A stretch of 64,000 nucleotides of DNA from the NCBI GenBank assembly GCA_965602015.1, contig OZ271918.1, positions 2,624,001-2,688,000 of the forward strand. Reading direction: 5' to 3'. The DNA is from Salinispira sp. (GTDB lineage Bacteria > Spirochaetota > Spirochaetia > DSM-27196 > Salinispiraceae). The position numbers and the translations under genes were made by a program. Shown here one piece after another: positions 1,709-15,795 of this stretch. The notes beneath the pieces were generated by a model. It was not told where the DNA came from and did not search any database. It saw nothing but the letters and a program-made list of their open reading frames with translations. Position 1 is the stretch's first letter, and each line of letters opens with the position of its first letter.

Positions 1709-3805
1709 CTATGTGGTTGTGAATGAGTTGAACTGTTCCGCCAGACCCTTTGCCAGACCTTCTAATTCCTTCCCGATTTCCTTGAGCTTTTTCATTTCAT
1801 CGACAAGCACGCTTGCCTGATCATTAATATTCGCCACGCCGGTGGACACTTCCGACGACTGCTCGCGGATGGTGGTCAGGGAGTTGCTGGTCATTTCGAC
1901 GCCTTTTCGGATTTCAGCGGAACCCTGATGCACCTGATTGGTGACGTTGTTTATTTCCTGGGTGGCATCCATGATCTGCTTTCCCCCGAGCGTCAATTCT
2001 GAGACCGACTGCTCAATCTCGTTGAAGGCGTTTACCGTCGATTGAACCTCCGCAGCGATGAGCTCGAACGATGTAATCGAGCCGCTGACGCTCTTGTTTG
2101 TGTTTTCAACGGCTGATGTGACCTCACTGATGAGGTTGGAGATGGCGCTGGAGGAATTCCCCGCTGTTTCGGCGAGCTTCCGTATTTCCTCGGCGACCAC
2201 CGCGAACCCCCGGCCCGAATCCCCCGCATGAGCAGCCTCGATGGCGGCGTTCATGGAGAGCAGGTTCGTCTGGGAGGCGATGTCATTTATCGCCGTTGCC
2301 ATGTCCTGAATGCGCTGCACGTTATCCACCACGATGGAAAACTCTTTAGAGGTTTCTTCGATGCTGTTCTGGCCCTCCTCGGCGGTGGCTTTTAGCTTGA
2401 GGGTGGATTCGTACTTCGTACTGGTGATGGAACCCACATTGGACAGGGAGGCTATCATCTGATTGATGGCCGCGGTGGATTCTTCGACCATGGCCGCCTG
2501 GCTGTTTATGAGGTTGTCGAATGAAACGGTGTTTGATGAGATTTCCTCAACCGCGCTGGCGCTCTCGGATATTCCCGAGTTCATTTTCTTGAGTTGTTCT
2601 TCGATATCGCTGATACTGTCATCGATGTCCTGGGTTGAGTTGACGGCGGTACTGCTGCTTTGAGACAGTTCGCTGCTGGAATCGCCAATGGTGTGTACCG
2701 CACTTTGAATATCGATTATTAACGCCTGCAGCTTTTCGACGAAGGCATTAAAATACCCCGCAACGGTTCCGATTTCATCTTTGGAACTCAGGGATATCCG
2801 TCTGGTAAGGTCCGCATCGCCTGAGGATATTTCCTGGAGGGAATCGCCGAGCTGTCTCAGGGGCCGGATGATCCGTCGGATAATCACGACCAGGCTGGTA
2901 AACAGCACAAAAAGCGAAACCAGGGCGGTCACCAATAGGGACACGACGATGGGAGTCAGCCTGTCAAGGTAAAAGGCGGTGGGGGTGGTGGTGACCACAA
3001 GCCCGACATCGGTCTCGCGGAAACTGGCGAAGAAATCCGTGTCTCCCAGGCTGTATTCCAGGGTCCCGCTTCCCTGCTCGAGTATGTCCTGGGCATATTC
3101 AAGGTCTGAGTAGGACTCGCCCACCAGCGTACCGTCGGAATGATACAAAACCTCGAGACTTTCGGGGTCAACAATGTACGAAAATGCCCCGCCCCGGTAG
3201 GGGTAGTTGGCAATGAGGGTCTGGGGACTGCTGGTTTCTATGAGCTGCTGAAGTTCCTCGGGCCTGACGCCGATCTGAAGCAGGCCGCGCTGATTCTCAA
3301 GGGGGACTCCGATGTACTGAAAGAGCACGCCGTCTACCGCCCGGAATTGGGGTTCCTGGGCAAGCTCGAAATTTTTGTCATCGATCATTCTGAGGAAGGG
3401 CCGGGTTTGATCGTTGGTATTAAAATCAAATCCGTAAAAACCCGAGATTGACCCGGCGTACAGAATTCCGTTTTCATCGATTACGTGTATTTCATCGACC
3501 TGCACCAGTTCGGCGATGCCCTGCATAAATGCCTCATCGGGTTCCTCCGGTGGATTTTCGAAAATAAAGGCGATGCTTCGGGCGATTCTCAAATAATTGG
3601 TATTCAGGGATTGTCGGAGCACTTCTATGTCATCGGCGGATTGATCAAGCCGCGAGGTAATATCGTCGAGAATGCCGTTCATCGCCAGTTCCATCTGGGT
3701 CCGGATTTCCCGGGAAATGTTGGTGTAGGCGATAAGGCTTACCACGAAGAGGGCTGCCAAAAGAAGGATAGACACAGGCACGATTATCTTGTTCGAAATT
3801 TTCAT
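1709..3805 (-). CDS. Methyl-accepting chemotaxis protein (2 TM, periplasmic Cache-like sensor, HAMP, MA domain)
   Basis: [38 protein letters not shown] hairpin signature; HAMP DLTRRI...DEIG. Confidence 0.95.
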
Positions 3806-3897: not shown

Positions 3898-4419
3898 TTA
3901 GCGGCTTCGTTCCAGCCGTATGCCAACCTGACCGGCATAATTGGTTTTTGAACCTTCGATATACACCCGGATCGACTGACCGAGGGCCGAAAAGTTTGCG
4001 GCGGGTGCCCGGCTGCCGTCAGGAGTATAGCCTCCCACCGCGTCGTAGAGCGAGGTATGCTCCGCATAATCATAGTCTACCTGGGCGGGTTCGCTATCCG
4101 GGTCATAGGGCACATTGTCGGCCTGAAGTACCATAAACCAGACTGCTTCTATGGGATTCTCAACACCTGAAGCGCCGTGACGGTCGGCATTATAATCATC
4201 GACCACATACAGGGCGTAGCTGTTTCCCTGGGTAACGGAAAAATCGATGGTTAGGGTTTCTCCGGCTGACAGGTCGACCACCAGCCATTCATTAAGTGCC
4301 AGTTCTTCCTGACGTGAGCCTTGTATTGCCGAATTGATTTCTTCCATTTCGAGGGCGGAAATGCCCAGTGCCAGTATCAAAACTGCAATTAATCCGATTA
4401 CAAATCGCTTATTACTCAT
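3898..4419 (-). CDS. Secreted protein made of one copy of the domain repeated at the C-terminus of the upstream YfcC fusion
   Basis: Start MSNKRF at 4419 with GGAGG RBS; signal peptide; VDDYN, AVWF, YIEGSKTNYAGQVGIRLER motifs align by eye with the repeats in 4536-5800. Confidence 0.8.
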   Translation of the reverse strand: MSNKRFVIGLIAVLILALGISALEMEEINSAIQGSRQEELALNEWLVVDLSAGETLTIDFSVTQGNSYALYVVDDYNADRHGASGVENPIEAVWFMVLQADNVPYDPDSEPAQVDYDYAEHTSLYDAVGGYTPDGSRAPAANFSALGQSIRVYIEGSKTNYAGQVGIRLERSR

Positions 4420-4535
4420 TCTTCCTCCGTGGATACATACCTGTTCTTCCCTAATTACAGAAGGCGGACTGGACGTTAGCCCTACCCGCTCCTCCATAAT
4501 TGCGCTTCTGCCAAAAATAATTCAAGCCCTGATCA

Positions 4536-7382
4536 TCAGGGCAGACGCTCGAGACGCAGGGCAAACTGACCGCTGTATTCCTCCTTGCTTCCCTCGATAT
4601 ACAGCGTCAGGCTCGAGGAGCCGGGGATGACCCGGGCGGAGGGTTCATTATCCGTTGCGCTGTAGCCCCCGTCGGCATCGTATGCGCCTGTGTATTCCGG
4701 CTCAGCATATACATCGGCATCGAGCAGACCGTCCTCATCAAAGAGGGCGAACCACAGGGCCTGAACCGGTGTATTGAGCTCGACGGAGAGCACCTCGGCG
4801 CTGTAGGAATCGGCGACGAACAGTCCGTACTGGACGCCGGGCTCAACGGAAAACCGGTACAGCCGGGCCTGACCGGCTGCAAGTTCCGAGGCGATCCATT
4901 CTCCGGTTCGGGCCTCAACAGGCGCTCCGCCGCGGGAAGCCAGCAGCCCGGCTGCGGATATGCTGACGCCATCTGGCGCTTCGCCTGGCTCATCCCCGAA
5001 AAGCCGATAATCACCTTCAAGGAGCGCATAGGCATAGGAGCCGGCGTAGCCATCGTTGTATCCCCGTATATCAACCACGGTCACCTCGGCGCTGGCAGTA
5101 AATACCGCTGCTGGCGGGGCAATATCAACTTCATTGCCCAGGGGGGCGACCCCGGCCGCCTTGTCTTCATCGTATTGCTGGTACACCGAGCGGGGGTACG
5201 GGGTTTGACCATCGGCCTCATAGATATGGAACTGATACGCCCGCAGCACCTCGCTTTGGGGAATGACATAGGCATTCTGACGGTTATTGTACGAATCGAC
5301 CAAATACAGCCGATACGCCGTACCCGGTTCGGTGCGGAATTCAATGGTCTGCTGTTGACCGGCTTCCAGACGCCCGATGCGGAACTCGAGCGGACTGCCC
5401 TGGGGGAGCGTCGACAGGATCTTCCTGCTGGAAAAGAGGGAGGGGTCGAGGCTCCCCCTGGGTCCGGTTACTACAAGTGCCAGGGCGCCGGCGTAGCTGC
5501 TCTGGTATCCCTCGATTTCCAGGACAATGCGGTCATCTTCGGGGATTATTTGCGCCGCCGCATCGGCGGATTCCGGAGTCACCCCTCCGCCGGCCTCCTG
5601 TACCGCATAGGAATCGGAATACTCCCGGCTGCCGTCGGCGGTGAAAGCCCTGAAGACCAGGGCCCGAATGGCGTCTTCCTCGGGGAGGGTATTCTCATAA
5701 AAGCTCCGGTTATAACTGTCGACCAGAATTATTTCGTGGGGCTGCCCGGTTTCAACCGGAACGCTGATCCGCAGCCGCTCGCCGGCTTCCAGTCGGTACA
5801 CCCCGTCCAGGGAGGCGGCGGACAGTTCGCCGGGTGCCGACAGGCTCGCAGTCCCGCCGGCTTCGGTCCAGTCCGGTCCCAGCACCGCCCCCCCGAGCAC
5901 TGCGAAGACGATGGCCAGCGTGGAAAGCACAAACAGGGCGCTTTGCAGCGCAAGCTGGCTTTTTACCCAGCGCAGCCAATCCAGCCTGGCCACCGCCAGA
6001 ACCCCCATGAGGGCGGCGGATGTGGGTACGATCATATTGGTAAACCCGTCCCCCAGCTGGAAGGCCAGAACGGAAACCTGCCGGGATACTCCGGCGTACT
6101 GGGCGAGGGGCGCCATGAGCGGCATGGTGAGGGCGGCCTTTCCCGAACCCGAGGGCACGAAAAAGTTGAACGCCGCCTGAAAGAGGTACATTACCCAGGC
6201 CGACAGGACCCGGGGCAGCTGTCTGAGGCCGTTGCCCGCCCCGTATAGGATGGTATTGAGCATATTGGGCGCCGTCGGGTCGCCCGGGTCGCCTCCGAGA
6301 GTCAGAATAATCAGTATGCCCTTTGCCATGCCGACGATGAGGGCCGCGCCCAATAGATCCCTGGCGCCGGACACAAATGATTCGGCTATGACCGAAACGC
6401 TCATGCCGTTGAGCTTGAAAATTACCCCGATGACTCCGGCAAGCAATCCCATAATAAAAAACTGGGTGGCGATCTCCGGAATGTAATACTCGGCCAGGGT
6501 GACGCCCAGGGCCACCCAGATTATTCCGGCGAGGACTATCAGCAAAACCAGGGCGTGACCGGTTGTAAAGCCCTGCTCCGCACCGCCCGGGCCGGAACCC
6601 CTGTTTTGGTCGCGGAAATACGCGTCGCTTTCCCAGCTCAGCGAACTCTCGGGATCCTTCGCGATTTTACGGGCGTACCACATGGTGAAGCCCGTCCCGA
6701 GGAGGGTAAACAGGATAAAAAGCAGGACCCGGTACCCGAGACCCGAAAGCACGGGGATTCCGGCGATTCCCTGGGCGATGGCAATGGAGAACGGGTTCAT
6801 CCAGCTTGAGGCGAATCCGATCTGGGTTGCCCCGTAGGTCACCAAGACCCCGGTTATGGCGTCGTAGCCGAGGGCCACCACAATGGGTATGACGATCATG
6901 GCGAAGGGAATGGCTTCCTCCCCCATGCCGAAAGTCGCTCCTGCGAAGGAGAAGATCAAAAAGAGAACAGGGATGAAGGCAATCCGGGCTCCCCTCAGGC
7001 GTTGAATTACCCGGTGCATCGCAGCCTCAATGGCGCCGGTTTTGATGATGATGCCGAACGCGCCCCCGATCACCAAAATAAAAACCACTATTGACGCCGA
7101 GTCCACGATACCCTGAAAGACATAATTGAACAGACCGACGCCATGATACGCGCCAAAAAGGGGCACTCCCCGGGTCTGCGGTCGGCCCCCGGCGCCGGAG
7201 AGAAACTCGAAGCTGTCGGGGTCGATGCTCACCCTCTCGTCCAGCTCCATGCGCTGAGGGTCCCACACATAGTTTTCTAGGACGTCGAATTTGCCCACCG
7301 GCACGATGTAGGTGAGAATCCACGCGGCAAGCACGACGAAAAAAATAACCACAAAGGTGTTCAGTGTTTTAGCCTGTTTCAT
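4536..7382 (-). CDS. yfcC: YfcC/DcuC(ArcD)-family transporter fused to three tandem extracytoplasmic domains
   Basis: N-terminal ~500 aa polytopic with GATFGMGEEAIPF, GFASSWMNPF, FFVPSGSGKAALTMP, AFQLGDGFTN motifs; hydrophilic repeated C-terminal ~440 aa in the same frame. Confidence 0.88.
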   Translation of the reverse strand: MKQAKTLNTFVVIFFVVLAAWILTYIVPVGKFDVLENYVWDPQRMELDERVSIDPDSFEFLSGAGGRPQTRGVPLFGAYHGVGLFNYVFQGIVDSASIVVFILVIGGAFGIIIKTGAIEAAMHRVIQRLRGARIAFIPVLFLIFSFAGATFGMGEEAIPFAMIVIPIVVALGYDAITGVLVTYGATQIGFASSWMNPFSIAIAQGIAGIPVLSGLGYRVLLFILFTLLGTGFTMWYARKIAKDPESSLSWESDAYFRDQNRGSGPGGAEQGFTTGHALVLLIVLAGIIWVALGVTLAEYYIPEIATQFFIMGLLAGVIGVIFKLNGMSVSVIAESFVSGARDLLGAALIVGMAKGILIILTLGGDPGDPTAPNMLNTILYGAGNGLRQLPRVLSAWVMYLFQAAFNFFVPSGSGKAALTMPLMAPLAQYAGVSRQVSVLAFQLGDGFTNMIVPTSAALMGVLAVARLDWLRWVKSQLALQSALFVLSTLAIVFAVLGGAVLGPDWTEAGGTASLSAPGELSAASLDGVYRLEAGERLRISVPVETGQPHEIILVDSYNRSFYENTLPEEDAIRALVFRAFTADGSREYSDSYAVQEAGGGVTPESADAAAQIIPEDDRIVLEIEGYQSSYAGALALVVTGPRGSLDPSLFSSRKILSTLPQGSPLEFRIGRLEAGQQQTIEFRTEPGTAYRLYLVDSYNNRQNAYVIPQSEVLRAYQFHIYEADGQTPYPRSVYQQYDEDKAAGVAPLGNEVDIAPPAAVFTASAEVTVVDIRGYNDGYAGSYAYALLEGDYRLFGDEPGEAPDGVSISAAGLLASRGGAPVEARTGEWIASELAAGQARLYRFSVEPGVQYGLFVADSYSAEVLSVELNTPVQALWFALFDEDGLLDADVYAEPEYTGAYDADGGYSATDNEPSARVIPGSSSLTLYIEGSKEEYSGQFALRLERLP

Positions 7383-7383
7383 C

Positions 7384-8871
7384 TCAATCCTCCGAAGCCA
7401 CGCTGACGTTCACCGGCTCGATATCCAGATACACATGAAAGGCGGAGAAATGAGCCCGTCCGGAAAAAACCTTGCGGCCCCAAAAGCCGTTGCTGTCAGG
7501 GCCCTTATAGAATCTCAGCATAACTCCGTCTCCCGGCTCGACGCCCCTCAGGAGATTGCGGTCGTCGAATGCGAAACCGAAGTTTTCATCGGCTTCGTTG
7601 TCCAATAAATCCTGAATCATGTGGTACGTCAGGGCATCAGGAGCGAAAACATTACCATTGACCGGTGGCTCGAGGGCGGAGAACTCGTCTCCCCGAAGGG
7701 AATTCTCTTTGTAGTCCGCAAAATAGAACTGGTATTCCCGGTAATCGAAGCGGTCTTTCTCCTCGATATACGAAAGGCGGATTCCCGTGGCCCGCATGGG
7801 CGCCAGTTGTTCGAATTGGGCGGCGCGCAAATCGATAATGACCGCCCCGCGCTCACCGACCACTTCAACGCTGCCGTCTTTGACGATGAGGGCGGTGTTT
7901 TCGTCAATGCCGACCCCGAGCTCTATGCCCCTGTCGGCCATTGCGGCAATTAAGCGGCCGAAACGCCCCCGCTTCAAAAAATGCTGGTCGGCCATAACCT
8001 CCGGCCAAAAGCCCAGCCCCTTGGTGAGAAACACCCGGTCATCCCGGTCATCGTAGTAGGGGTCGTCATCGGTGGCGCCCTGCAGCAGGGCTCCAAGGCT
8101 CGATCCGCCGTCGATCATGGGGTCGGACATGATCGCCGCGCCGGCGCTGGTTCCGCCGATGACTGCTCCGTCACGGTAAAGCCGGCGGATCTCTTCCAGT
8201 ACCGGGCCGTCGCTCCAGCTCCCCGAATCATCCTGAACCATCAACAGGTCGCGGATTCGGCCCTGCCACCCCCCGGTGAACCAGATGCCGGTCACCCCCC
8301 GAAGGGCGGAGATGATTTCATCGGAACCCATGACCCCCTGCTCGCGCTTCAGAGCTCTGGCGGCCCGAACGAGCTCCCGCTCCCGTGCTTCGCCTCCGCC
8401 GCTCTTGGAAAGTTCCTCCGTGAGTATGCTGAGCACTTCGTCGGAGGCACTCTTTCCCCCGTAGCGCCAGTAGGATTCGTCGAGTTCAAGGGTTTGAATG
8501 TCATCCCGGTCGGCAATAGGAAGAACGATGATCCTCTGCTCAGGTACGCCGTAACGGGAGAAAATCCCCCGGTAGTACGAAGCCGACTGAGCAGGGGTTC
8601 CGCTGGCTCCGGGGAATATCGCGATTCGGGCGTGAACCGGCCCTCCGGCCAGCTCTATGAATTCGGTAAACAACGCCGAGTTGTCCGCCTCTACCGCCCC
8701 GCCGGCGATTACCAGACTTCCCAAAGGTGACCCGTCAACCGGAGCATGCCGGGGCCCGGAACAGGCGGGCAGTATAATAGAAGCCAGAACAACAGAAGCC
8801 AGAACAAACACTATTGCAGGGGAAAGCGGGCCGGTTCTCTGCCGCAGCGGGTTAGCTGGATTGGCAAACAT
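7384..8871 (-). CDS. Cyanophycinase (peptidase S51), predicted lipoprotein / exported CphE-like
   Basis: LVIAGGA, FTGG.Q, nucleophile GTSAGA, DQHF..RGRFGRL, GIDENTA; hydrophobic signal ending LPAC. Confidence 0.9.
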   Translation of the reverse strand: MFANPANPLRQRTGPLSPAIVFVLASVVLASIILPACSGPRHAPVDGSPLGSLVIAGGAVEADNSALFTEFIELAGGPVHARIAIFPGASGTPAQSASYYRGIFSRYGVPEQRIIVLPIADRDDIQTLELDESYWRYGGKSASDEVLSILTEELSKSGGGEARERELVRAARALKREQGVMGSDEIISALRGVTGIWFTGGWQGRIRDLLMVQDDSGSWSDGPVLEEIRRLYRDGAVIGGTSAGAAIMSDPMIDGGSSLGALLQGATDDDPYYDDRDDRVFLTKGLGFWPEVMADQHFLKRGRFGRLIAAMADRGIELGVGIDENTALIVKDGSVEVVGERGAVIIDLRAAQFEQLAPMRATGIRLSYIEEKDRFDYREYQFYFADYKENSLRGDEFSALEPPVNGNVFAPDALTYHMIQDLLDNEADENFGFAFDDRNLLRGVEPGDGVMLRFYKGPDSNGFWGRKVFSGRAHFSAFHVYLDIEPVNVSVASED

Positions 8872-9150
8872 GTAACACCTCCGGATTTTTCTCTGTAGTA
8901 TACACGCGCGGGGCTGCTAGCCCGCAATTATTACGACTATAGTAGTAGTAACCATAATATCCTGACGACCGCCCAGGGGCAAGGGCGGGTGACAGGGTGA
9001 AATTCACTCTATTTCCGAGACCCGGGGTATTGCCCGATTTCATGTATTATAGTAATCCTATGCACCGGCATTGTTCGACAGCGATTGCACTCCAAAGCCG
9101 GTAAATCTTTACAAAGGGGTCAATTACCATTTTGCCCCGCGAGGTGTCCT

Positions 9151-10105: not shown

Positions 10106-10966
10106 CTATTGATCCATACTGTCCACAAAGCGCTTATACTTTTTGTCTTCTTCCAGGATGTGTTTCACCGTCCAGTCCCTGAGAAATACTATGATTTCAT
10201 CGGTCAGGTTGATTTTTCCCGTTTTTAACTTCTGAGCGAAACCAGAAACTTCTCCAACGAAGTATTTATGCAGTTCCTGGTGATCGTGCAGGAGAGGATA
10301 GGCGTTTTTGGCCATATGCTCCTCTTCATAGGAAAAGTGATACTGGGTGTAATACAGAAGCTTTTTGATAATGATCGGCAGGAACAGCTGTTTCCTGGCT
10401 TCGCTGGTATGCTGCAGGTCGTTGGTTTGCTGAAGGATGGCGATGAGCTGCTTGTGCTGATCATCTATCGCCTTGATTTCCAAGCCGAGCTTTTTCTGCT
10501 GCCACAGATTGAGCACTTCGCTTCGGGAACTCTGGGCGGGAGAAAAATGCAGCTCCGGTACGATGTTGTTGGCTGCGAAATATCCGGCGTACTCCCGGTC
10601 ATCCCCATGTATATGCTTGAGAATCCATTCGACCAGGAAATCCTGCAGGTGCTCAAGGGGCATGTTGGGCTTCTCGCGATATTCGTCCAGGTATTGTTTT
10701 ATCTCTTTTCTGAAATTTTCGTGCAGCTCGAGATGTTCTTCCACATCCGGATATCCGTATTCCCGAAACAGTCCCTCTTCGCTGACGAAGTGAAAACCGG
10801 TGTAGGCATACAGGCGCTTGAGCACCTTGATTATCATCTCGCTATCCCTGCTTTCCGACTCAATCTCGTCGTGAAGCTGATTTGTGAGAATGAACAGTTC
10901 CCGATGCTGGCTGTCGATTACTTCAATATCGATGCCGTGCTGTTTCTGATCCCATTGAACGAACAT
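10106..10966 (-). CDS. Bacteriohemerythrin with two hemerythrin domains
   Basis: Two copies of ID.QH..L, HF..EE, H...H, W...HI...D; start at MFVQW (10966), the longer ORF-track extension is tandem-repeat DNA. Confidence 0.92.
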   Translation of the reverse strand: MFVQWDQKQHGIDIEVIDSQHRELFILTNQLHDEIESESRDSEMIIKVLKRLYAYTGFHFVSEEGLFREYGYPDVEEHLELHENFRKEIKQYLDEYREKPNMPLEHLQDFLVEWILKHIHGDDREYAGYFAANNIVPELHFSPAQSSRSEVLNLWQQKKLGLEIKAIDDQHKQLIAILQQTNDLQHTSEARKQLFLPIIIKKLLYYTQYHFSYEEEHMAKNAYPLLHDHQELHKYFVGEVSGFAQKLKTGKINLTDEIIVFLRDWTVKHILEEDKKYKRFVDSMDQ

Positions 10967-10994
10967 GCTTACAGTATCGCCCAGCGCAGCCCGC

Positions 10995-11064
10995 GCTGCA
11001 AACCATACGCTGCAAACCATACGCTGCAAACCATACGCTGCAAACCATACGCTGCAAACCATAC
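10995..11064. repeat. Perfect tandem repeat, 5 x 14 bp (GCTGCAAACCATAC)
   Basis: Five identical adjacent units, no spacers. Confidence 0.97.
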
Positions 11065-11125
11065 AGTGCAAGCATTGCGGGAAACCTCCAGGCATACTAC
11101 TGTAGTAGCGAGAACGGAGGTCCAC

Positions 11126-13421: not shown

Positions 13422-13739
13422 TTAAAAGCGATCCTGACGCCATACCTCTACGTCTTCCAGGTATACGATTCCCGGGTAGCGGCTAAAAACCTGGTTTACC
13501 ACGGCTTCGGCAATGGTTTCCGCCGTAGCCCGCTCCCGGACGATGACTTCGATTTTCACATTGGAAAAATCATCAACAACTGAGGCCCGGGAATCTATGG
13601 AGTGGTAATGGTGAAGTCCCCGGCCTCCTGCGGCCACCAGAGTATAGCCCTTGGCTCCCGATGCGCTGATGATTTTCTGAATTTCCCGCTCTACGAATTT
13701 TTCAGTGACTATGATTACCTTTAAGGCTTTATGAAACAT
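13422..13739 (-). CDS. P-II family regulator, SbtB-like
   Basis: KVIIVTE, GAKGYT...GGRG, NVKIEVIV, GIVY..DVEV; ATG 13739 with GAGG; directly downstream of the SbtA-like gene. Confidence 0.85.
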   Translation of the reverse strand: MFHKALKVIIVTEKFVEREIQKIISASGAKGYTLVAAGGRGLHHYHSIDSRASVVDDFSNVKIEVIVRERATAETIAEAVVNQVFSRYPGIVYLEDVEVWRQDRF

Positions 13740-13775
13740 GATTTCCTCCTGTTCGCACAAGGATACGCCGGGCTA

Positions 13776-14780
13776 TCACGGAAACACCGTGACTGCAAGC
13801 GAGTAAAACAGCGGAATCCCCACGGCAACCGCCATAGGGGTACCCAGACTGGTAGACGCTCCAATGTAGGCGGACGGATTTGCCCCGGGGATGCCTGCCC
13901 GAAGGGTCGGAGGGCCGGAGATATCCGAACTCGAAGCGGCAATCACCGAAAGTAAGACTACACCGCCGGGGCTGAAGCCCACCAGCCGGTTAGCAATGTA
14001 TCCAAGGCCGAACCCGATGAATCCGTGAACCAGCGGAGCCAACAGGGCATAGAGGGCAAACCAATGGGCCACATCCTTAAGTTCCCTCAGACGCGAATAG
14101 GCCTCCATTCCCAAAATAAGCATGAGGATTGACAGGAACCCTCTGAACAGCGGATCGTAAAAACTCTCCACCACCGAGTCGGGCCGGGCGAACAGTCCCA
14201 GGACAAGCCCCAATAGCATGGCCGACAGGGCTGATCCCCGGAGGCTGTCGAGGATGATCGTTCGGGCCTTTACCCGATGCTCCGCGCTATCTCCCTTCCG
14301 CTTTCCGTGCATATTCGCCATAACGATGGCCAAAATCAGCGCGGGAATGTCCATAAACGGATAGAGGGCCGGAACCCAGGCCTCGAAGTACATCGCCTGC
14401 TCCTCAAGAAGAACAATACCCGCCGCCATAGTCGATGCGCTCACCGCCCCGAAAAGTCCCGCGGTGGCCAACCCGTCTTGGGTATCTATTCCCGGCAAAA
14501 GGGCGAAGAACACCTTTCCAAGTACCACGATGAGAACGGCGCCCAGCATTGAAAGTAGGGCGGGCAGCAGCATGCTCCCGATATCAGCCTGTCGAATTTC
14601 AATGCCCCCGTCCATGCCGATCTTCATCAGAAGAACGAAAACGATAAACTGGTAAATGGACCCCGGAATACTGAGCTTGCTGCCCATGGCAGCCAACAGA
14701 GCGCCTCCGATTAAAAACGCCAGGGTCGGCGATTGCAATTGGGATAAGAAACGGCTCAAAAAATCCATCAAGGCTGGCAT
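13776..14780 (-). CDS. Sodium-dependent bicarbonate transport family permease (SbtA-like)
   Basis: About 10 TM; LLMKIG..GG, GLFGAVSAST, SSSDISGPPTLRAGIPGANPS.Y. Confidence 0.88.
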   Translation of the reverse strand: MPALMDFLSRFLSQLQSPTLAFLIGGALLAAMGSKLSIPGSIYQFIVFVLLMKIGMDGGIEIRQADIGSMLLPALLSMLGAVLIVVLGKVFFALLPGIDTQDGLATAGLFGAVSASTMAAGIVLLEEQAMYFEAWVPALYPFMDIPALILAIVMANMHGKRKGDSAEHRVKARTIILDSLRGSALSAMLLGLVLGLFARPDSVVESFYDPLFRGFLSILMLILGMEAYSRLRELKDVAHWFALYALLAPLVHGFIGFGLGYIANRLVGFSPGGVVLLSVIAASSSDISGPPTLRAGIPGANPSAYIGASTSLGTPMAVAVGIPLFYSLAVTVFP

Positions 14781-14901
14781 GTATCATCTCCTTCTGCAAA
14801 TCCTTAGTAGATAGCGTGCACTCACCATACCTTACTTATTTTATCATCTTTATAAAAATTGATTATTGCAATCAAACCGTTCTATAAAATAGAATGATAG
14901 T

Positions 14902-15795
14902 ATGCGGATTAACTACAACCACCTGCGGTATTTCTACTTCGTGGCCCATGAGGGACACCTGACCCGGGCTGCAGGCAAACTCCACATTTCCCAGTCTGCC
15001 CTTTCGGTCCAGATCAAGACCCTGGAAAATGACCTGGGTCACCAGCTTTTCACCCGTCAGGGACGGAGCCTGCAGCTCACCGAGGTCGGCAGGCTGGTGC
15101 TGGAGCACGCGGACGGAATTTTTCGAAGCGGAGAAGAGCTGCTGTATCAATTGGCCCACCATCGGGAGCTGAGCCGAAGGCTCTTCCGGGTCGCGGCTGT
15201 TACCACTCTTTCGCGCAATTTCCAGATTGAGTTTCTCGGTCCGCTTCTATCCAGACCGGACACCGAGCTGGTGGTCAGCTCGGCGTCCCTTGCAGATCTT
15301 CTCGCGCAGCTGGAGTCCCACCGAATCGACGCGGCACTGACCAATACCGCCCCTACCCGCGAAGCCGGCACCCCCTGGGTATCGCACCTGATCTCGAAAC
15401 AGCCCGTGGGGCTCATCGGCCCGGCGGATTTTAAGGATGATGGTCGCCCCCTGAAAGACCTGTTGAGCCGGGAGCCGCTGTTCATCCCGAGTCCAGACAG
15501 CAACATACGGCTGGCATTCGACGCCCTCATTGAGCGTATGGGCATAGCGGTGGACATAAAGGCTGAAGTGAATGACATGACCATGCTCAGGCTTTTCGCT
15601 CGGGAGGCAAAGGGACTGGCGATAGTCCCTCCCATTGTGGTCCGCGATGAACTGGAACAGGGAATACTGCGGGAGATCAGGGAATTCCCGGAAATTCAGG
15701 AGAGCTTTTATGCAGTCGTCTTAAAGCGCCGCTTCCCCAATCCGCTCCTCGATGTGCTTCTAAAAAAGGACGGGAAGAAGAAGGACGGGAAATAG
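14902..15795 (+). CDS. LysR family transcriptional regulator (NhaR-like), divergent from the sbtAB-like genes
   Basis: NYNHLRYFYFVAHEG.LTRAA..LHISQSALSVQIK HTH. Confidence 0.93.
   Translation: MRINYNHLRYFYFVAHEGHLTRAAGKLHISQSALSVQIKTLENDLGHQLFTRQGRSLQLTEVGRLVLEHADGIFRSGEELLYQLAHHRELSRRLFRVAAVTTLSRNFQIEFLGPLLSRPDTELVVSSASLADLLAQLESHRIDAALTNTAPTREAGTPWVSHLISKQPVGLIGPADFKDDGRPLKDLLSREPLFIPSPDSNIRLAFDALIERMGIAVDIKAEVNDMTMLRLFAREAKGLAIVPPIVVRDELEQGILREIREFPEIQESFYAVVLKRRFPNPLLDVLLKKDGKKKDGK

Follow-up and report, generated by a model that had tools for sequence, protein, structure and literature searches.

A candidate cyanophycin-scavenging locus in Salinispira sp. joins a predicted lipoprotein cyanophycinase to a YfcC-family carrier with predicted PPC-like repeat domains

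Cyanophycin is a common nitrogen reserve, but to our knowledge its capture by non-producers, and their import of beta-Asp-Arg, are poorly understood. Here we examine a locus at positions 3,898-8,871 of a 64-kb stretch of contig OZ271918.1 from Salinispira sp. (the window, meaning this whole stretch; its own genome, labelled G000, is 3.87 Mb and 99.67% complete). The locus, at 2,628-2,633 kb of the genome, holds genes for a cyanophycinase, a YfcC-family carrier whose C-terminal tail carries three copies of a domain, and a free copy of that domain (Table 1). An earlier sequence-only reading of this DNA had reported three closely spaced minus-strand genes with a first gap of 1 bp, and the coordinates of the open reading frames (ORFs) bear this out: the ORFs of 495, 948 (7382-4536) and 173 amino acids (aa) are separated by exactly 1 bp (base 7383) between the cyanophycinase and yfcC genes, and by 116 bp between yfcC and the free-domain gene. 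For the latter, a start at 4419 is likely, in preference to an upstream ATG at 4497, because GGAGG lies just 5′ of it and the resulting length of 173 aa equals that of the homolog P0005. We infer that the three genes are co-transcribed.

Table 1. Features of the locus and its surroundings (window coordinates)
Feature	Position	Strand	Basis
Lipoprotein-type long-form cyanophycinase (peptidase S51), 495 aa, predicted lipidated Cys37, S242/H297/E324	7384..8871	-	TIGR02069, PF03575, alignment to 3en0/7uqw/7uqv
YfcC-family membrane carrier core (aa 1-500 of 948), IT-superfamily fold	5883..7382	-	NF008611, PF03606, model matches
Tethered domain R1 (aa 523-641), predicted PPC/CBD-like beta-sandwich	5460..5816	-	Profile match; all-beta in model
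Tethered domain R2 (aa 655-789)	5016..5420	-	Profile match, model
Tethered domain R3 (aa 815-946), closest to free copy	4545..4940	-	BLAST, profile, tree 97/89
Free single-domain protein, 173 aa, N-terminal hydrophobic signal	3898..4419	-	BLAST, AlphaFold, fold searches
Weak sigma70-like site 5′ of cyanophycinase (9/12)	8954..8982	-	No better than chance
Methyl-accepting chemotaxis protein, 92 bp downstream of free-domain gene	1709..3805	-	Same strand; SpiroCoCo match

The first gene product scores 172.2 bits against TIGR02069 (curated cut-off 126.6), also matches PF03575, and aligns with the three solved structures at GTSAG, DQHF, RxRxxR and IDE, its aligned serine (S242) being the residue changed to alanine in 7uqw. 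The intact S51 catalytic motifs that had been read from the sequence are thereby confirmed. In an alignment of 51 sequences (the window enzyme and 50 of 119 listed homologs), S242, H297, E324, Q203, Q296, R303 and R306 are invariant, while D295 is kept in 49 and R301 in 47. We take S242, H297 and E324 to be the catalytic triad and Q203, D295, Q296, R301, R303 and R306 to be substrate contacts, in line with the assignments reportedly made by Law et al. (2009). The available portion of PMC12661447 adds nothing further on the cyanophycinase active site. Full-length homologs named cyanophycinase occur in Bacillus/Priestia, clostridia and spirochaetes, and the closest record in the genome collection (74% identity) is from an uncultured Salinispira sp. 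Much like the extracellular S51 enzyme CphE, the window enzyme has the catalytic and substrate motifs and a putative export signal; unlike CphE, it is a predicted lipoprotein, has an insertion of about 60 aa before GGxQ, and carries tryptophan in that motif (GGWQ). Its N-terminus has a hydrophobic stretch (aa 12-40) and Cys37 in a non-canonical lipobox, ILPAC. Because seven other lipoprotein-type homologs (P0023-27, P0081, P0082) share a cysteine at this point after the hydrophobic N-terminus, lipidation at Cys37 is likely.

The carrier matches NF008611 (YfcC) with 626.7 bits against a cut-off of 500, over aa 8-496 and model positions 3-488 of 492. This core of about 500 aa also matches Pfam PF03606 (DcuC) and belongs with the IT superfamily, where the nearest solved folds are YdaH, MtrF and INDY; its structural model matches YdaH, MtrF and DASS carriers. 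Unlike plain YfcC, the protein continues for another 445 aa as a C-terminal tail of three domain repeats ending at aa 946, which is what the sequence-only reading had described. In the full-length model (pLDDT 71.7, pTM 0.49), the core is helical and is joined to three beta domains by a linker modelled with low confidence (502-525). In an alignment of 12 carriers, the mean content is 3.2 Lys+Arg and 0.9 Asp+Glu for the segment that precedes the last helix, and 0.5 and 3.5 respectively for the one that follows it, which is present in six of the rows. By the positive-inside rule, these flanking charges place the tail outside the cytoplasm, which in a two-membrane cell is the predicted periplasm. 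The free copy, which bears a signal, is likewise predicted to be non-cytoplasmic.

The tail repeats, each of about 125 aa, share 29-35% identity with the free copy (BLAST E 1e-9 to 3e-23). The claim of a secreted single-repeat protein, 173 aa long with its N-terminal hydrophobic signal, stands as well. BLAST of the tail against itself misses the repeats, which are too diverged and become visible through the free copy and a profile. No NCBIfam, Pfam or PDB-sequence family was found for the free-domain protein, and PF04151 (PPC) matches none of 33 domain members at E<=0.1 and none of the window proteins at E<=1. The AlphaFold model of the free domain, made from a 10-row alignment, is an all-beta sandwich (pLDDT 85.1, pTM 0.84). 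Its top Foldseek match is the collagenase PPC domain 5sv5 (E 1.8e-5), and its VIA matches, which are tied, are PliG (Z 10.0), collagenase CBD (Z 9.6) and collagenase PPC (Z 9.4). Across the PPC, CBD and PliG structures, Z is 9.1-10.0 and the rmsd 2.3-2.8 A over 97-103 residues, at 6-15% identity. ESM features put the copy of genome G107 at 0.91 to the PPC cluster, at rank 28 of 30 and after 27 unnamed clusters; the nearest ESM clusters are unnamed phage proteins (0.87, and 0.95 for the G107 copy), and tblastn found no copy of the domain in phage genomes. Matches to V-ATPase d (E 0.02-0.06) were rejected as chance. Like PPC, collagenase CBD and PliG, the window domain is a predicted beta-sandwich that is extracytoplasmic and occurs in tandem, and a remote form of it is fused to S51 proteins; unlike them, it lacks a sequence match, has its own motifs (D-S-Y-N and G-G-x-T-P, in extra loops), and is attached to a transporter instead of a protease. 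We predict from the models that it represents an unnamed family with a PPC-like fold. In the domain tree, R1, R2 and R3 pair by position across genera and the window free copy groups with R3, while the free copy of G107 does not join. Word-index protein searches returned family-level relatives only and missed copies later found in genomes, and therefore carry little weight.

The fusion of this domain to YfcC is found in five spirochaete genomes (G000, G097, G094, G107 and G525). An assembly artefact was considered and rejected on account of this recurrence; the locus sequence is also identical and gap-free in one contig each of two of three public runs, possibly its own source. The fusion is present in a metagenome cluster as well (9 of 15 listed members, at 967-969 aa, of a 17-member cluster). 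A tree of 13 carrier rows, built from membrane cores only and leaving out P0010, P0014 and the outgroup loci L046-L048, places the four intact fused carriers in one clade (94/99, short of the tool's star), set apart from the plain YfcC paralogs of G094 and G107. In G097, iadA lies directly 5′ of an orthologous cyanophycinase gene (76% identity), and the 3′ end of the latter runs into the beginning of the fused yfcC, which is on the next contig. The cyanophycinase of G094 is of a second type, and the lipoprotein ortholog was not found in this 57% complete assembly. In G107, which belongs to another class, a divergently transcribed free copy, a lipoprotein cyanophycinase (40% identity) and a YfcC with one domain are adjacent in that order, and a second, plain YfcC adjoins iadA. 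The proposed coupling of an exported cyanophycinase to YfcC is supported, and the three-part architecture is conserved in another class.

The fifth genome, G525 (97% complete), was added by a class-wide domain search with matches in 2 of 301 genomes. Its fusion (L183:4389-7478, G525:C65) combines a heavily diverged YfcC-like membrane part (NF008611 40.5 bits) with two strong domain copies and stands behind a gene for an exported alpha/beta hydrolase. No cyanophycinase over the cut-off was found in G525, where the fusion may have been re-used for another substrate.

The co-occurrence of domain, cyanophycinase and YfcC was followed through the window's order and phylum. Among 99 genomes of the order, the domain is present in 3, the same 3 that have YfcC over the cut-off, and cyanophycinase over the cut-off in 4, those 3 included. 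Even sampling of the phylum (401 genomes) gave 13 domain matches, reduced to 11 before counting by dropping two weak ones (G110, E 5e-4; G415, E 1e-4, with stops); the counts also leave out weak matches in G157 (E 2e-3), G130:C40 and G217:C1. Cyanophycinase is found in 6 and YfcC over the cut-off in 4 of the sampled genomes, and all 4 of the latter have all three. With G000 removed, the association has a Fisher p of 1e-5 by genome and 3e-4 by genus, kinship not being corrected for. Across the 14 genomes with a strong domain match, 6 (from 4 of 6 genera) have cyanophycinase over the cut-off, the second-type enzyme of G094 included. A metagenome scan gave three YfcC loci without the domain, L086 only in broken frames. 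The YfcC family often adjoins iadA or an M20 peptidase; in unrelated metagenome contigs, plain YfcC adjoins an M20-type peptidase (L085:8331-11476) and iadA (L084:5637-8396).

In two further genomes, G217 and G130, several exported S51 proteins begin with a remote form of the domain (hhalign 95.4%, E 1.8e-8), which scores 13-25 bits against a best of 6.9 in 1000 shuffles. Each has four cyanophycinases over the cut-off, and in both YfcC is unfused, with strong domain copies away from it. These genomes (loci L184, L185, L187, L188, L139, L146) have 14 and 11 S51-family matches, among them tandem exported cyanophycinases, and a cphB followed by a shortened cphA-like gene of about 640 aa. One of their S51 proteins with an N-terminal PPC-like domain is without the usual catalytic motifs.

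Genes that would supply the remainder of a cyanophycin-degrading pathway are present elsewhere in the genome. IadA is encoded at 807 kb, about 1.8 Mb from the locus (471.5 bits against a cut-off of 331), an iaaA-family gene lies at 2,326 kb (341.7 bits), and arginine deiminase (arcA) scores 392 bits. No cphA was found over the cut-off in this genome (best score 66 against 850 bits), nor was cphA found in G097, G094 or G107, the assemblies of G097 and G094 being incomplete. Scavenging rather than storage, as first proposed from the window alone, is likely, because iadA, iaaA and arginine deiminase are present and cyanophycin synthetase is not. The iadA and arcA genes fall, together with a second cyanophycinase, within one 35-kb region. 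Between 780,000 and 808,500, this region has arginine deiminase and iadA along with genes resembling arcB (ornithine carbamoyltransferase), arcC (carbamate kinase), ornithine dehydrogenase, aminomutase and racemase, and alanine dehydrogenase; the arcB, arcC and ornithine-fermentation labels were assigned by eye, with no family search. The cluster is likely a full route for fermenting both halves of beta-Asp-Arg. The second cyanophycinase, without a visible signal and 33% identical to the window enzyme, is followed by a hybrid two-component sensor gene (770,743-776,012, L016; also G097:C119 and G094:C303). This pair is kept in three genomes, the sensor being apparently split into two ORFs in G000, and nearby are a TrmB-like regulator, a carbamate kinase and an oligopeptide ABC operon, again labeled by eye.

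There are precedents for such a pathway. Cyanophycinase, iadA and a transporter make up the ‘cyanophycin utilization locus’ described in the polymer-scavenging strain L21-Spi-D4 (Ben Hania et al. 2017, as cited in PMC10206079), and PMC10206079 reports clustering in 45 of 52 genomes that have cyanophycinase and dipeptidase but no cphA1. Analogous to that locus, the window has clustered cyanophycinase and transporter genes in a genome with no cphA1. Unlike it, insofar as PMC10206079 describes it, the window's cluster is without iadA, which in G097 is adjacent, and its carrier has three extra beta-sandwich domains, with a free copy besides. On sequence grounds, the window locus is a putative cyanophycin utilization locus in split form and would work in the same manner. 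Import and cleavage of beta-Asp-Arg by a non-producer is also documented in Pseudomonas aeruginosa, where the ABC importer AotJQMP acts with a dedicated hydrolase, AotO/CphZ; the window is proposed to use a secondary carrier instead. Among the literature examined, AotJQMP (PMC9974463) is the only beta-Asp-Arg importer with genetic evidence. Literature searches found no paper pairing YfcC with cyanophycin or isoaspartyl dipeptidase, none linking Salinispira with cyanophycin, and, in titles and the starts of abstracts, no published description of a domain-YfcC fusion. The scavenging locus as such has been described, as cited in PMC10206079; the fused-domain architecture, for which the sequence-only reading knew of no described system, was not found in print in these searches. 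The pathway is of a known kind; what is new is that an unnamed, predicted PPC-like domain is conserved in fusion with the carrier and also has a free copy next to it.

The explanation that we favor overall, and consider reasonably probable, is a cyanophycin-scavenging unit whose domains grip the polymer or its oligomers near enzyme and carrier. In this scheme, cyanophycin from lysed producers would be degraded to beta-Asp-Arg by an exported and, as predicted, membrane-anchored cyanophycinase. YfcC would take up the dipeptide for cleavage by IadA or IaaA inside the cell, and the arginine would enter the arginine deiminase pathway. Each of these proposed steps is based on family membership and context, and taken together the pathway is likely. 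Within it, three tethered domains and one free domain would grip polymer or oligomer in the periplasm beside enzyme and carrier. Gripping is favored because of the analogy with PPC and because the domain is fused both to S51 proteins and to YfcC; PMC6168687 describes a segment with a PPC domain that binds collagen and facilitates its breakdown. Given the pathway, we put this role for the domain at slightly less than an even chance. That beta-Asp-Arg is the substrate of YfcC we infer.

Several observations weigh against the gripping unit or parts of it. The surface capture by tethered repeats that was first envisaged is unlikely, because YfcC is an inner-membrane carrier with a predicted periplasmic tail, from which the tethered copies would probably not make contact with granules at the cell surface. 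Literature searches found no transport assay for any YfcC. The fold is common to non-binding proteins as well (the inhibitor PliG, GOLD), and a like fold shows no function. Charge was discarded as an indicator of arginine binding, since the acidity of the window's domains is not retained in G107 (17-19 D+E, 21-22 K+R). The specificity of the window enzyme may differ from the usual, since tryptophan replaces the aspartate of GGDQ found in 35 of the 51 aligned sequences, a trait of six rows including the window's. As for gene order, G097 has its free copy at a separate place, downstream of an oligopeptide ABC ATPase gene, and in G094 no free copy comes after the fused gene. The sequence-only reading had also counted a domain mostly away from cyanophycinase and YfcC as evidence against itself, and this is partly what is seen: 8 of the 14 genomes with a strong domain match are without cyanophycinase over the cut-off, namely seven of one genus and G525. 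The seven (L127, L128, L131-L135) have a conserved secreted triple-repeat protein of the same domain, and no cyanophycinase or true YfcC over the cut-off was found in them. Where the locus extends far enough, in six of them, a two-component system adjacent to tldD/pmbA lies upstream of the gene for this protein. Strong copies in G217 and G130 are either free proteins or the N-terminal part of hybrid sensor kinases; G217 additionally has them as the C-terminal part of BspA-LRR and ankyrin proteins. In the class of G107 the domain is in 8 of 8 genomes, where it may be a general envelope module. Judged by this distribution, the domain is not exclusive to cyanophycin, because of the eight genomes without cyanophycinase and the copies on sensor kinases and repeat proteins.

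A bolder form of the gripping unit is that the repeat is the first cyanophycin-binding module, a PPC-like domain transferred from proteases onto a secondary carrier. It would build a periplasmic ‘grip, cut and import’ assembly, in which an elevator-type transporter holds insoluble polymer, lipoprotein enzyme and its own entry site together, and on hybrid kinases it would sense the polymer. We regard this form as doubtful.

Two alternatives keep the same pathway and assign the domain another role. One possible hypothesis is that the domains dock or regulate the cyanophycinase in the manner of PliG, with tethered copies holding the enzyme at the carrier so that product is handed over, and the free copy competing or inhibiting. 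The top VIA match, tied with CBD and PPC, is indeed an enzyme inhibitor, the remote form is fused to S51 proteins, and the fused-YfcC clade adjoins an exported hydrolase in all four genomes with upstream DNA (cyanophycinase in G000, G097 and G107, alpha/beta hydrolase in G525). The domain nevertheless persists in the eight genomes without cyanophycinase and on sensor kinases, and G217 and G130 have exported cyanophycinases and YfcC without any fusion, leaving docking improbable. The predicted complex of cyanophycinase and free domain scored 0.11 against a mark of 0.32 and was not used for or against binding. A second hypothesis, which we rate just as low, treats the domain as a generic spirochaete envelope module that contacts cell wall, membrane surface or ions and positions its partners with no cyanophycin specificity. 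Its presence on unrelated exported proteins (sensor kinases, LRR, ankyrin and triple-repeat proteins, free copies), in every genome of one class, and in G525 despite the heavily diverged carrier part would fit such a module, whereas in the window's order the domain is confined to the three genomes with YfcC, all four copies of G000 sit in this one locus, and a free copy stands beside the unit in both G000 and G107. Least probable is that the unit handles another isoaspartyl- or arginine-rich peptide, or that the carrier is a plain arginine/ornithine antiporter: NCBI names NF008611 a ‘putative basic amino acid antiporter’, the long-form enzyme carries insertions and GGWQ, and IadA and IaaA are promiscuous according to PMC10206079, but the motifs that we take to contact cyanophycin (DQH, RxRxxR) are all kept, YfcC adjoins iadA in G107 and L084, and G107 has the unit with no arginine deiminase match, a poor fit with obligatory ornithine exchange.

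A promoter and terminator scan stayed at chance level, with 4 sites found against 3.7 expected. The chemotaxis gene downstream was considered as a member of the unit, which related genomes do not support, as no such gene comes after the free copy of G097 or after the G107 unit; no Pfam match was found for the periplasmic part of its product. Elsewhere in the window, features recognized by eye include two hemerythrin-like repeats at 10106-11125 on the minus strand, overlapped by a long spurious ORF on the other strand, and a P-II-like gene, an SbtA-like bicarbonate transporter and a divergent LysR regulator at 13422-15795. A large purine/pyrimidine-catabolism-like cluster spans 16052-37206, with molybdo/seleno oxidoreductase subunits, a carbamoyltransferase and adenine deaminase, some of its ORFs being apparently split.

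The locus offers a concrete candidate substrate for YfcC and delineates an unnamed family of small, soluble domains. The partners of this family (carrier, S51 proteins and sensor kinases) point to one common ligand or surface. Should the domain bind cyanophycin, it would be the first binding module for this polymer, usable as a probe or affinity tag, and the fused carrier would be a secondary transporter that, unusually, bears domains for gripping a polymer.

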